A DNA stretch of 64,000 nt from Candidatus Saccharimonadales bacterium (lineage in GTDB: Bacteria; Patescibacteriota; Saccharimonadia; Saccharimonadales; OMJO01): NCBI GenBank assembly GCA_035480035.1, contig DATIID010000001.1:329323-393322 (forward strand), given 5' to 3'. The translations under genes and the position numbers were made by a program. Positions 30,746 through 53,040 of the stretch are shown here, piece after piece. Position 1 is the stretch's first letter, and each line of letters opens with the position of its first letter. The notes under the pieces were generated by a model. It had not been told where the DNA came from and did not search any database. It was given only the letters and a program-made list of their open reading frames with translations.

Positions 30746-30822
30746 GGGGATATAGCTCAGTTGGCTAGAGCGCTTGCATGGCATGCAAGAGGTCCGGGGT
30801 TCGAGTCCCCGTATCTCCACCA
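30746..30822 (+). tRNA. tRNA-Ala(GGC), CCA encoded
   Basis: The acceptor is GGGGATA/TATCTCC (G3:U70 present), the anticodon arm is CTTGC-ATGGCAT-GCAAG and the T arm is CGGGG-TTCGAGT-CCCCG. Confidence 0.9.
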
Positions 30823-30850
30823 AGTTTTGGCTAGTATTATTGACATTTCA

Positions 30851-30898
30851 TTCGTGTCTACAGAAATAGTCCACCGGACTATTCTGCCCGTATCTCCA
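30851..30898 (+). pseudogene. Partial, interrupted copy of the tRNA-Ala 3' end
   Basis: TTCGTGT, then a 29-nt hairpin (30858-30886), then CCCGTATCTCCA aligns to the tRNA segment TTCGAGTCCCCGTATCTCCA. Confidence 0.6.
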
Positions 30899-30900
30899 TG

Positions 30901-30936
30901 AACAAAAAGGACCGATTGAGTCGGTCTTTTTTGTTC
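30901..30936 (+). terminator. Intrinsic (bidirectional) terminator
   Basis: The stem GACCGA/TCGGTC has a TTGAG loop and a T6 run, with a complementary A-run upstream. Confidence 0.6.
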
Positions 30937-30945
30937 ATGCGTACC

Positions 30946-30967
30946 CACCCGGCGGCGGGTGTTTTTG
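30946..30967 (+). terminator. Second intrinsic terminator
   Basis: The hairpin CACCCG-GCGG-CGGGTG is followed by TTTTTG. Confidence 0.55.
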
Positions 30968-31038
30968 TGTATGTTTGTAAGGTGTTTATTTCACACGCCG
31001 CGGAACGCACGATATACCATAAGCATAATCTTTTAGGA

Positions 31039-50922: not shown

Positions 50923-52560
50923 TTAGCTGGTAGGCAAATGATTTAGTAAGTGATCAAGTGCGTAACTTTGACGAAGAAGCGGCTTGATATCATCGATTGA
51001 GACATTGACTTTAACACCTGGGTTGAGTGTGCCGTAGGGGTCAAAAATTTCCTTGAGCTTTCGAAACATTTCATAACGCTCATTACCATAAAGCTTCTTT
51101 AGGTAAGGGCCGCGCAAACGACCGTCGCCATGTTCGCCAGTCGTACTACCACCCAAATCAATCACCAAACTGTAATATTCATCAAGCAATTTAAACATTT
51201 TTTGACGATCACCAATCTGTGACAAATTCAGGAAGGGCTGGAAGTGCAAATTACCATCGCCGGCGTGTCCCCAAACAGCGGTATCAAGCGAGTATTTGCT
51301 AAATAACTCGTAGACTTTATCCAAATATTGTTTGAACTTGTCAATTGGGACTATTCCATCTTCTATAATTGGCAAAGGCTTGGCGCCATTGTTGGCTTGA
51401 TTGACTAACAAAGCCGCCGAATGACGAATTTTCCAAAGAGTTTCTTGTTGCTGTTCTTCAGTTTCAATTTGATAAGTAATCTGGTTTTTCTTAAGTAGTT
51501 TTTCAACCTTTTTAGTCATCTTTTTTTGAATACGATCAGACGAGTTATCGAATTCCACCAATAATATGAGTTTAGGAAATGGTTGTTTGACGATACCCTT
51601 TAGCAAGTTTGGATTGGTCTCATGAATAAAGTTAAGTAAATTAACATCAACGGCTTCCATAGCGCTTGGCCGTTCAGCAAATTTACGCAGTTCAATCATA
51701 ACTTCTTCAGCCAACTGCAAGTCATCAAAGAAGATTCCAATTAAGGTGCTGGATGGGTTATAAAGCTCGGTCTTTAAGGTAATTTCACTTACTACTCCGA
51801 GCGTACCTTGCGAGCCGACAAACAGTGGCGTCAAATCAAAACTACCATCTTTTCGTTTAACTTTATCAAGAGCGTAGCCGGCCGAGTTTTTGGTAATCGG
51901 CAGGTTCATCATGACCAAATGTTCGTGATTTTCTTCAATCAATTTATCAAGACTACGATAGACTTCGCCTTCAAAGGTTGATAAACCGAGCTTCTTATTA
52001 AGTTCGCGCTTACTTAACCGACCGGTGGTAATAACTTCACCATTAGCCAAAACAACCCGCAAAGTCTTAACGAAATCACGGGTAGACCCATACTTGATTG
52101 ACCGCTCGCCGCCGGCGTTATTGCCAACCGCCCCACCGACTGTACTAAATTCCAGTGAGGCTGGATATGGCGGCAAAAAACGTCCATGCGTGTGAAGAGT
52201 CTGTTGTAACTTACCATAGTTAATACCCGGCTCAACGACCACGGTGCCGACCTTGCCATCGAGTTCGATAATCCGATTCATATGAGCCGGAAAAACCATG
52301 ATGATACCACTGCCGAGCGCCGCGCCACTTTGATCGGTACCAAGCCCACGAGCCGTTATTGGCATAACCCGACCGCGTTCAGCTAACTGCCATGAGAAAC
52401 GGGTAACTTTACGAATATCATTTTCGTTTCGTGGATAAACAATAATCGAAGGCGTGACAGTTAACACGCTGCCGTCCGTCGAGAAATAAGCCCGCGCTTC
52501 CGTGCTGGTAATAACTTCTCCGGCCATGTGTTCTTGTAAATAATGTGCGACTTTGTTCAT
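50923..52560 (-). CDS. FAD-binding oxidoreductase (GlcD-like), paralog of 11264..12922
   Basis: It has TARGLGTDQSGAA, GGAVGNNAGGERS and GGSTTGEHGDG, the same architecture as the other copy. Confidence 0.75.
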   Translation of the reverse strand: MNKVAHYLQEHMAGEVITSTEARAYFSTDGSVLTVTPSIIVYPRNENDIRKVTRFSWQLAERGRVMPITARGLGTDQSGAALGSGIIMVFPAHMNRIIELDGKVGTVVVEPGINYGKLQQTLHTHGRFLPPYPASLEFSTVGGAVGNNAGGERSIKYGSTRDFVKTLRVVLANGEVITTGRLSKRELNKKLGLSTFEGEVYRSLDKLIEENHEHLVMMNLPITKNSAGYALDKVKRKDGSFDLTPLFVGSQGTLGVVSEITLKTELYNPSSTLIGIFFDDLQLAEEVMIELRKFAERPSAMEAVDVNLLNFIHETNPNLLKGIVKQPFPKLILLVEFDNSSDRIQKKMTKKVEKLLKKNQITYQIETEEQQQETLWKIRHSAALLVNQANNGAKPLPIIEDGIVPIDKFKQYLDKVYELFSKYSLDTAVWGHAGDGNLHFQPFLNLSQIGDRQKMFKLLDEYYSLVIDLGGSTTGEHGDGRLRGPYLKKLYGNERYEMFRKLKEIFDPYGTLNPGVKVNVSIDDIKPLLRQSYALDHLLNHLPTS

Positions 52561-52718
52561 AAATCTGTCTGACTCCCAAGTGCTTAACCTTAAAGCATTA
52601 GCGAGGCTATGAACAATATGATAACACAGCTAGCTCATCGAAGTTGGTTAGGAGTTGCTTTTAGGTGGCTTATAGCGTTAAGATTGAAAAGCTTTTAGCT
52701 TATGCGGATATGGCGGAA

Positions 52719-52754
52719 CTATACCCCACAAAGCAAGCTTTGTGGGGACCCCGA
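52719..52754 (+). repeat. Hairpin element, copy 1 (36 nt), inside the D loop of the split tRNA
   Basis: The sequence is CTATACCCCACAAAGCAAGCTTTGTGGGGACCCCGA. Removing it restores TGGCGGAATTGGTAGACGCG. Confidence 0.75.
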
Positions 52755-52772
52755 TTGGTAGACGCGCTAGTC

Positions 52773-52811
52773 CTACACCCCACAAAATGTTAAATTTTGT
52801 GGGGGCCCCGA
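52773..52811 (+). repeat. Hairpin element, copy 2 (39 nt), in the anticodon-loop region of the split tRNA
   Basis: The sequence is CTACACCCCACAAAATGTTAAATTTTGTGGGGGCCCCGA, with an 11-bp stem and the same termini as copy 1. Confidence 0.75.
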
Positions 52812-52828
52812 TCTTTAATTGAATTGAT

Positions 52829-52915
52829 GCCGCAGTGGTGAAATTGGTATACACGCTAGCTTCAGGAGTTAGTGAGCGCAAGCTCGTGGAGGTTCAAGTC
52901 CTCTCTGCGGCACCA
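52829..52915 (+). tRNA. tRNA-Leu(CAG), type II, CCA encoded
   Basis: The sequence is GCCGCAG-TG-GTG-AAATTGGTATA-CAC-G-CTAGC-TTCAGGA-GTTAG, a long variable arm, GGAGG-TTCAAGT-CCTCT-CTGCGGC-A-CCA. Confidence 0.9.
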
Positions 52916-53040
52916 TTTCGATTAAGGAAATGTGGTCTCCATTAAAGCCTTTAGACTTTAATGGAGATAAAGCAAAGGAGCTAGTGAGCGCAAGCTCGTG
53001 GAGGTTCAAGTCCTCTTATCCGCACCATAAAGGTAGTTTA

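Follow-up and report, generated by a model that had tools for sequence, protein, structure and literature searches.

In a 64,000-nucleotide stretch of the genome of a Candidatus Saccharimonadales bacterium (GenBank assembly GCA_035480035.1, contig DATIID010000001.1, positions 329,323 to 393,322 of the forward strand), referred to here as the window, four of the nine transfer RNA (tRNA) genes, those of tRNA-Ala, tRNA-Phe, tRNA-Leu(GAG), and tRNA-Leu(CAG), are trailed by a further copy of a tRNA 3' end. We assign these copies, with moderate confidence, to two kinds, with the Phe and Leu(GAG) copies forming the tails of modules built like the RtT repeat of Escherichia coli, and the Leu(CAG) and Ala copies representing displaced pieces of older genes. 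The account that we favour, tentatively and at somewhat less than an even chance, is that the copies are footprints of recurrent recombinational turnover at Saccharimonadales tRNA genes together with RtT-like modules, with no integrase in cis. The window has a GC content of ~43% and belongs to a Candidatus Saccharibacteria genome of roughly 1 Mb.

The tRNA 3'-end copies of the window

ARAGORN and Rfam are concordant on the nine tRNA genes. When each tRNA was compared with the 400 nt downstream of it, with upstream flanks as controls, the longest exact match was 12 nt for tRNA-Ala, 18 nt for tRNA-Phe, 21 nt for tRNA-Leu(GAG) (positions 64-84, copied at 49574-49594; counted from 49571, the match is 24 nt with a single mismatch), and 35 nt for tRNA-Leu(CAG), the last as part of an alignment of 52 nt in which 46 are identical. 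The other five tRNAs and all upstream controls gave longest matches of 5-7 nt, with the one exception of a D-arm 11-mer common to tRNA-Gly and tRNA-Phe. Local alignment against shuffled flanks strongly supports three of the copies, with scores of 36 (Phe), 43 (Leu(GAG)), and 79 (Leu(CAG)) and null maxima of 21-23; the Ala 12-mer is marginal by itself, at an estimated ~0.002 per test and ~0.05 after 36 tests. The gap between the tRNA end and the copy is 64 nt for Ala, 148 nt for Phe, 138 nt for Leu(GAG), and 60 nt for Leu(CAG).

The original prediction, made from the sequence alone, that four tRNA genes are followed by 3'-end repeats is therefore real, as is its remark that three of the four include CCA, with the Ala copy ending at the discriminator base. 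Its statement that 64 kb contain no recombinase, and that no cargo lies between the repeats, is borne out by protein family checks, with Pfam and NCBIfam revealing no integrase, transposase, or other recombinase family in any open reading frame (ORF) of the window, and no reverse transcriptase being found there. The view that all four cases share one architecture, with each tRNA's own 3' end repeated across merely structured spacer, requires revision. The Ala, Phe, and Leu(GAG) copies do match their own tRNA, but the Leu(CAG) copy is that of an older allele, with its acceptor strand differing from the working gene at 5 of 7 positions, and the intervening DNA is organised into an inverted arm, a core, and hairpin inserts (Table 1).

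Table 1. Features of the four tRNA loci, in window positions, and copies of the family A core in related loci, in positions of the locus named (L numbers denote loci of related genomes).
Feature	Position	Strand	Evidence or remark
tRNA-Ala(GGC), intact	30746..30822	+	ARAGORN; Rfam tRNA 67.7 bits
Non-coding insert of 64 nt, two hairpins	30823..30886	+	fold -15.2 kcal/mol, z -1.75
Putative displaced fragment CCCGTATCTCCA, tRNA-Ala positions 63-74 (3' strands of T-stem and acceptor, plus discriminator), without CCA	30887..30898	+	
Bidirectional terminator hairpin directly after the Ala fragment	30899..30939	.	
tRNA-Gly(GCC)	47820..47896		3 nt upstream of tRNA-Phe
tRNA-Phe(GAA), intact	47900..47975	+	ARAGORN, Rfam
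Terminator 1 after tRNA-Phe, 13-bp stem and T tract	47978..48013	+	centre of decayed mirror repeat
Inverted arm, decayed reverse complement of tRNA-Phe T-arm/acceptor 3' region (…TCCCGGACGAGAACTGG)	48015..48034	+	
Mini-hairpin ACTGC-GAA-GCAGT, second inversion centre	48038..48050	+	GC-GAA-GC equivalents in L009 and L030 B units
Direct copy of T-stem 5' strand and first half of T-loop (CAGTTCG)	48051..48057	+	
Family B core, 66 nt, at T-loop position of partial tRNA copy	48058..48123	+	
Tail GTCTGGGAGGAGCCACCA, tRNA-Phe positions 59-76 including CCA	48124..48141	+	18/18
Terminator 2 after Phe module, 12-bp stem and T tract	48144..48179	+	no sequence relation to terminator 1
tRNA-Leu(GAG), intact	49352..49435	+	ARAGORN, Rfam
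AT-rich hairpin after tRNA-Leu(GAG), at the terminator 1 position	49438..49467	+	sequence
Inverted arm GACAGGTCTTGAACCT, reverse complement of Leu T-arm	49477..49492	+	score 22 vs mean 11, p<0.005
Family C core: hairpin AAATGTCC-TGT-GGACATTT, conserved motif GAGTTTTCCTTGCTTGGCC, second hairpin	49493..49570	+	
Tail GTACAAGTCCTCTCTCGCGCACCA, tRNA-Leu(GAG) positions 61-84 including CCA	49571..49594	+	23/24
Third X-like hairpin (CCCCAAGAAG…CTTCTCGTGGACCCCG) in tRNA-Cys/tRNA-Leu(TAA) spacer	50700..50730	+	
Old tRNA-Leu(CAG) piece 1, positions 1-15, GCGGATATGGCGGAA	52704..52718	+	same as start of L042, L043, L048 working genes
X1, 35-nt hairpin insert in D-loop of old gene	52719..52753	+	
Old tRNA-Leu(CAG) piece 2, D-arm and anticodon stem 5' strand, ATTGGTAGACGCGCTAG	52754..52770	+	score 24 vs null maximum 20
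X2, 40-nt hairpin, left end of 205-nt insert in anticodon loop of old gene	52771..52810	+	
Working tRNA-Leu(CAG), nested in old gene	52829..52915	+	other allele family (GCCGCAG…CTGCGGC, as L007, L010)
Hairpin Y, 12-bp stem, no T tract, near right end of 205-nt insert	52936..52967	+	
Old tRNA-Leu(CAG) piece 3, positions 35-87, anticodon loop to CCA, acceptor TATCCGC	52976..53027	+	score 79
Family A copies in L005, L008, L009, L013	L005 12049-12135, 14260-14455; L008 17694-; L009 ~9620-9711 (-); L013 1887-1974 (-), ~4610-4696 (-)		
Family A copies in L023, L030, L037, L038	L023 9378-9560, ~19215-19302 (-); L030 8428-; L037 9064-; L038 3070-		

The Phe and Leu(GAG) modules are 125-165 nt long and start just past the tRNA terminator. 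At Phe, the DNA beyond terminator 1 reads as a decayed mirror of the tRNA 3' end and of the left arm of the terminator, with the inverted arm scoring 19 against a shuffle mean of 12 (p=0.01) and pairing with the tail in the predicted fold. A direct copy of the tRNA follows, in which CAGTTCG is broken at the T-loop by the 66-nt core and resumed by GTCTGGGAGGAGCCACCA. The core, of the family that we term B, comprises the hairpin GGTCA-C-GC-GCA-AATG-CTTG-CATT-GA-GC-A-TGACC plus GGAC-GAA-GTCC, and its minimum-energy fold is alike in four members. At Leu(GAG), the predicted fold likewise joins the inverted arm and the tail in a closing helix, and a core of family C sits between this arm and a near-complete T-arm; unlike the Phe module, that of Leu(GAG) has no terminator of its own. 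Both cores are single-copy in the window. In the predicted folds each unit is closed where the T-stem portion of the tail pairs with the inverted arm, leaving the acceptor-CCA end single-stranded. The tRNA-Gly(GCC) gene beside tRNA-Phe has an unusual T-loop, GGTTAGAGTCC, instead of GGTTCGA…, with the same loop occurring in L005, and the gene order is Gly-Phe in the window and Phe-Gly in L005, L008, L021, and L024.

The tRNA-Leu(CAG) locus holds an old gene in three pieces, which together rebuild 84 of the 87 nt of one tRNA-Leu(CAG) that equals the working genes of L042, L043, and L048 in both acceptor strands and in the anticodon stem. This gene is split twice, by X1 in the D-loop and by the 205-nt insert in the anticodon loop. 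Piece 3, with the same 3' end as the genes of those three loci, is the trailing copy of the original prediction. The arrangement is identical in three independent assemblies, and is thus not an assembly artefact. An exact-protein look-up for polymorphic strains returned the same genome only, with the identical LigA protein encoded in the metagenome-assembled genome (MAG) GCA_964572305.1 and in three Logan runs (SRR9179559-61), and the loci being identical. Contigs 1, 6, and 16 of this MAG (L114, L117) break inside tRNA-Leu(GAG) and tRNA-Leu(CAG), with a 55-nt overlap, evidently because the Leu T-arm and tail sequences are repeated; such repeats break metagenome assemblies inside tRNA genes. 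Compared with this MAG, the window stems from a more contiguous assembly of one and the same genome. The X hairpins (…CCCCACAAA-loop-TTTGTGGGG-A/G-CCCCG) form a 35-40 nt repeat with three copies in the window, all at tRNA loci, and further copies at ~17895 of L008 and ~9394 of L012.

The Ala fragment lines up with the 3' end of the tRNA. We take it for the original 3' end, pushed aside by a segment of 76 nt that bears a new one; this is the weakest of the four cases. The 64-nt insert has no recognisable core family and no BLAST relative in 45 related loci, and the terminator after the fragment resembles that after tRNA-Ala in L019, with both ending ...TTTTxGTTCATG. A WhiB-domain protein is encoded directly upstream of tRNA-Ala (30287-30721, +).

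Elsewhere in the window, an ORF at 44209-44820, preceded by a small ORF at 43958-44203, has a weak Pfam match to the AbiEii nucleotidyltransferase-toxin family (E 1.3e-4), with AbiEii-related toxins modifying tRNA 3' ends. The leucyl-tRNA synthetase encoded at 19437-22331 (-) shows a NUDIX domain match between its class I synthetase domain matches (Pfam).

Recurrence and core families in related genomes

The pattern is common in relatives, contrary to the absence that the original prediction named as grounds for its refutation. A survey of the kind that it suggested covered 45 Saccharimonadales loci, totalling 555 kb and containing 123 tRNAs. The relatives of the FAD-linked oxidase encoded at 50923-52560 of the window are all Candidatus Saccharibacteria/Saccharimonadales MAGs, with 50-69% identity over the full-length protein. 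A partial tRNA copy of at least 12 nt lies within 500 nt downstream of 23 of the 123 tRNAs, and an upstream 5' fragment accompanies six. Downstream copies follow tRNA-Val(TAC) at 10 of 32 genes, Leu-CAG at 7 of 34, Leu-GAG at 3 of 34, Ala-GGC at 2 of 5, Phe at 1 of 6, and Gly at none of 6, with the upstream fragments occurring at Leu-CAG (four), Val-TAC (one), and Gly (one), and at none of the Leu-GAG, Ala-GGC, or Phe genes. Of the 23 units, 17 have a statistically significant inverted T-arm copy, which always starts 41-54 nt past the tRNA end (Fisher p = 4e-20). A 12-mer, GTATTATTGACA, is shared downstream of tRNAs in the window and in L040, but proved in a scan not to be a general motif.

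BLAST and inspection group the cores, of 66-95 nt, into families. Family B, that of the Phe module, also follows tRNA-Phe in L005 and L008, tRNA-Val in L005, L009, L030, L040, and L041, and tRNA-Leu(CAG) in L035, L041, and L047. Family C, that of the Leu(GAG) module, follows tRNA-Leu(TAA) in L006 and tRNA-Leu(CAG) in L023 and L036. In every family B or C unit, the arms and tail agree with the local tRNA. The hairpins of the cores show covariation. Of the four inner pairs of the B hairpin (CGCGCA-NNNN-CTTG-NNNN-GAGCA), three swap G-C and A-U types, and the outer stem changes in step; in family C, 9 of 27 pairs show a compensatory double change. Family A, which is found outside the window, is 88-95 nt long with three hairpins (GTGAGA…GCAAGG…GGGGTCGC…GTGAC), and has 21 of 31 pairs covarying and a G-U pair kept in 9 of 10 members. 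All of its copies lie within tRNA-derived sequence. With this covariation and no Rfam match, family A is a candidate for a structured RNA, or a mobile element, of a new kind. The tRNA-sense strand folds better than the antisense strand in families A, C, and D.

Between L047 and L032, identity is 99.5% over the oxidase gene and tRNA-Leu(CAG) but drops to 74% starting 14 nt beyond the tRNA, a sharp recombination boundary at the tRNA gene. A family B unit is present in L047 only, without counterpart in L032, and the L032 terminator resembles terminator 1 of L047, so that the unit would lie beyond the native terminator, on its downstream side. The copy trailing tRNA-Leu(CAG) in L023 has an acceptor allele unlike that of the working gene. 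In L010, a 0.75-kb methyltransferase cargo is bounded by 10-nt CAAGCCCTCT T-arm repeats of a tRNA-Leu remnant, and appears to be a one-gene cargo put in at the T-loop without an integrase; the ~230-aa methyltransferase-like ORF (15170-15945) lies between a tRNA-Leu T-arm part, GGAGGTTCAAGCCCTCT, and a tRNA-Leu 3' end, CAAGCCCTCTCATCCGCACCA.

Rfam, at gathering and permissive thresholds, returned only tRNA, tmRNA, and noise for the window, the 205-nt Phe module alone, and three relatives. Searches with cores A, B (two patterns), and C against 2.9 million IMG/VR viral contigs gave chance coding matches only, with no phage attP among the pattern matches; for genomes, these searches extended to the fetched loci.

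Origin of the copies and competing explanations

The origin and spread of the modules, their transcription, and any function can be inferred as follows. At Phe and Leu(GAG), recombinational turnover would leave a decayed inverted arm past the terminator, then a conserved core, and then a direct copy that begins at the T-loop or the 3' strand of the T-stem and extends to CCA, with pairing of the inverted arm to the T-stem closing the module into a helix bearing a single-stranded acceptor-NCCA end. Should read-through transcription occur, the tRNA 3'-processing machinery may set the 3' terminus of the module RNA and shield it, as suggested by E. coli rtT. At Leu(CAG) and Ala, new DNA would have been joined at a loop position, bringing a complete substitute gene in the case of tRNA-Leu(CAG) and only the 3' part in that of tRNA-Ala, with the old tRNA piece remaining downstream and the old Leu gene probably being struck additionally by the 35-40 nt X hairpin inserts. 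The joining may have involved template switching at palindromic terminators, or incoming DNA recombining in conserved tRNA sequence. Small-circle (Campbell-type) insertion at the T-loop was at first favoured for all units, and was set aside as the comparison of L032 with L047 argues that the B unit of L047, at least, lies downstream of the native terminator.

Several observations weigh against this account, or against a strongly selected function for the modules. The Phe module has no convincing promoter and is separated from tRNA-Phe by a strong terminator, and the family B core shows no sense-strand bias. Module distribution is patchy, with the Phe tails decayed in L005 and L008, and L040 and L041 show 11 differences over 105 nt of a decayed B unit (3 of the 11 changes re-registering a hairpin), with the tRNA and terminator 100% identical; a unit evolving at least as fast as its surroundings argues against strong selection. 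Template switching alone leaves the source of the cores, and the unrelatedness of terminators 1 and 2, unexplained. Furthermore, the Rfam RtT model (RF00391; gathering score 45 bits, with E. coli units scoring 133-138 bits) has no match in the window at 47700-53200 with E up to 5, at 47976-48180 with E up to 10, or in L005, L009, and L013 with E up to 1, so that the RtT parallel is architectural, with homology not demonstrated.

Foremost among the alternatives is that cores A, B, C, D, E, and X are active non-autonomous mobile elements homing into tRNA loops, acting at the level of RNA or single-stranded DNA with the enzyme encoded elsewhere, and that the tRNA pieces are the wreckage of struck copies alongside which an intact copy was rescued or imported. 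We consider this unlikely, although it draws on the behaviour of family A, which always starts GTGAGA or GTGAAA, ends at a fixed hairpin, and substitutes, as we read the junctions, for 3 nt of tRNA-derived sequence (GGT seven times, GTT twice, GTA and GCG once each) in the D-loop, anticodon loop, variable loop, or T-loop, and which is nested twice, in L005 and L023, within another family A copy at the same CGG|GGT|CGC site. Such inserts look like an active element and favour mobile elements over recombinational turnover, as do the strong covariation and conserved G-U pair of family A, the X hairpins in the D-loop and anticodon loop of the old Leu(CAG) gene, and the location of all A, B, and C copies found in the 555 kb of loci, beside or inside tRNA-derived sequence. 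However, each family except X (three copies) is single-copy in the window, which encodes no transposase, reverse transcriptase, or recombinase, and no empty site could be paired with a filled one at precise boundaries. In B units the arms fit the local tRNA, which is unexpected if the whole unit moves, and the terminators of L032 and L047 put the B unit past the native terminator, not inside the gene. If mobile elements were nevertheless responsible, which we regard as improbable, Saccharimonadales would possess an undescribed class of 35-95 nt structured elements (A, X, and perhaps B-E) that home into tRNA-gene loops. These elements would replace a few nucleotides and nest, and RtT-like modules, including the long-unexplained E. 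coli rtT, would be their domesticated or fossil products.

Local replication error alone, in which snap-back template switching at the terminator and tandem inversion duplication are followed by neutral decay and the cores are filler, is still less likely. The mirror-like DNA past terminator 1, the constant offset of the inverted arm, and the decay of tails in some lineages are in keeping with such errors. So is the end of the L036 contig, where TGGTGGGTGATGAGGGACTCGA, a perfect reverse complement of the tRNA-Val 3' end, directly follows the tRNA-Val terminator; the contig stops there, leaving a full and a partial copy indistinguishable. However, terminator 2 is unrelated to terminator 1, the inverted arm of E. 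coli RtT occurs without a terminator palindrome, and the Leu(CAG) pieces are of an allele other than that of the working gene. Additionally, the cores are conserved, with compensatory changes, and are common to several tRNA identities and species, which rules out duplication and decay, the simplest alternative of the original prediction, and deletion remnants as full explanations.

A further possibility, to which we attach little probability, is that the modules are trans-acting RNAs, for example decoys, as the original prediction suggested, or guides, that act through their tRNA-like tail or through the arm that is complementary to the T-arm. The CCA tails of the window are intact, the elements are kept in a ~1-Mb genome, the conserved family C motif GAGUUUUCCUUGCUUGG is only partly paired in the predicted fold, and rtT has been connected with the stringent response in E. 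coli (bioRxiv 10.1101/2024.07.17.603846). However, no target and no promoter were found, loss and decay are common, and the family C motif may be just the U tract of a terminator-like hairpin.

Least probable, and already judged a poor fit by the original prediction, are ordinary attL/attR scars of integrase islands or prophages at the T-loop or anticodon loop, later stripped of nearly all their DNA: the displaced fragments are direct, start at or near these loops, and reach the 3' end as in the Islander definition of a genomic island endpoint (a displaced tRNA fragment in direct orientation running to the 3' end; PMC4383910), tandem units occur in L008 and L030, and the L010 cargo lies between T-arm repeats, but the window has no integrase (the units of relatives, whose loci were not scanned, being too short for one), the cores are absent from the viral contigs save for chance coding matches, covarying hairpins are unexpected in deletion remnants, four independent near-total deletions in 22 kb would be needed, and at Leu(CAG) both acceptor strands are replaced with old 5' pieces upstream, a locus that an integrase crossover in the anticodon loop, which would retain the native 5' half, cannot yield.

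Comparison with RtT and other known systems

Islands and prophages integrated in tRNA genes by tyrosine integrases combine an intact gene with a displaced 3' fragment in direct orientation, with fragments starting at or near the T-loop or anticodon loop and accreting in tandem, all of which is shared here. They differ in that the inserts described here are of 60-205 nt, carry structured covarying cores and an inverted arm, and lack integrase and cargo, and in that the whole gene is new at Leu(CAG), not the 3' part only. The test for an island-derived hybrid gene, with a native 5' part and a 3' part from the element, fails at Leu(CAG), where the acceptor strands and D-arm differ and the old 5' pieces lie upstream; at Phe and Leu(GAG) the copies are identical to the tRNA. 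No integrase was found within or next to the repeat-bounded segments (60-148 nt). Williams, in 2002, reportedly described sublocation classes of tRNA integration. Displaced tRNA fragments are a standard marker for island mapping, and this lineage would give many false island calls.

MITEs (miniature inverted-repeat transposable elements), REPINs, and Rickettsia palindromic elements are short, hairpin-rich, and non-coding, have no enzyme in cis, and in some cases enter RNA genes. As small non-autonomous repeats (PMC10969869, PMC3337134), they share with the modules their brevity, their hairpins, and the lack of coding capacity and of an enzyme in cis, but differ in that the copy number here is very low, the ends derive from the neighbouring tRNA, and the association with tRNA loci is strict. 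No target-site duplication was seen at the junctions, many dispersed copies were not found, and the literature on Saccharibacteria and Patescibacteria tRNA repeats, or on MITEs in tRNA T-loops, yielded nothing matching. The 3'ETS-leuZ of E. coli is a non-coding RNA that is encoded immediately 3' of a tRNA and set free when the tRNA is processed. RNAs of this type are encoded 3' of a tRNA like the modules, but have neither a tRNA 3'-end copy nor an inverted arm. Other candidates were rejected, namely a group I intron or other known ribozyme (no Rfam match, with cores of 66-95 nt being too short for group I or II introns), a hammerhead or HDV-like ribozyme (no model match), a kink-turn in the B hairpin (sequence unfit), an IS200/IS605-type element with a guide-like flank (family A takes out 3 nt and varies in its left flank), and a retroviral-type primer-binding site (wrong strand, no reverse transcriptase).

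The closest parallel is the rtT repeat of E. coli, an isolated curiosity since the late 1970s. The tyrT locus of strain MG1655 contains six copies of the last 19 nt of tRNA-Tyr, two being the 3' ends of the tyrT and tyrV genes and the remaining four terminating four Rfam RtT units (178-bp repeats). Each unit consists, in order, of an inverted T-arm/acceptor copy (GGGGAAGGATGAGAAGCTTCGA), CCAA, GGTTCGA, a ~66-nt core, and AATCCTTCCCCCACCACCA, with the closing helix of the Rfam RtT family formed by the inverted arm paired with the tail. A passage of PMC3318445, citing Bosl and Kersten 1991, reports rtT as the RNA product of one tyrT repeat unit.

The Phe and Leu(GAG) modules resemble RtT in having, downstream of the tRNA and on the same strand, a tail that repeats the tRNA 3' end including CCA (the last 19 nt, 19/19, in RtT). 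The family B module further shares the order of parts, from the inverted arm through a short loop, T-stem 5' strand, half T-loop, and ~66-nt core to the tail, and in both RtT and the Phe module the inverted T-loop reads GAGAA in place of TCGAA (GGACGAGAACTGG in the window). A helix of inverted arm and tail closes the RtT unit, and appears to close the modules here, as judged from minimum-energy folds and arm statistics. The two differ in that RtT has a single type of core, present in about three repeats at one locus, and the tRNA and unit are not separated by a terminator, whereas the modules described here have several core families and several tRNA identities, with usually one unit per locus, placed after a terminator. 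On this comparison we regard the Phe and Leu(GAG) modules, with moderate confidence, as a variant, in design, of the RtT-type tRNA-tail module. The suggestion of the original prediction that the copies are co-transcribed tRNA-like 3' modules thereby gains an anatomical precedent in E. coli tyrT, one that extends to Phe and Leu(GAG). With several tRNA identities and several core families involved, a one-off accident is unlikely, and the occurrence of the RtT design in a bacterium of the candidate phyla radiation suggests a general process at tRNA genes.

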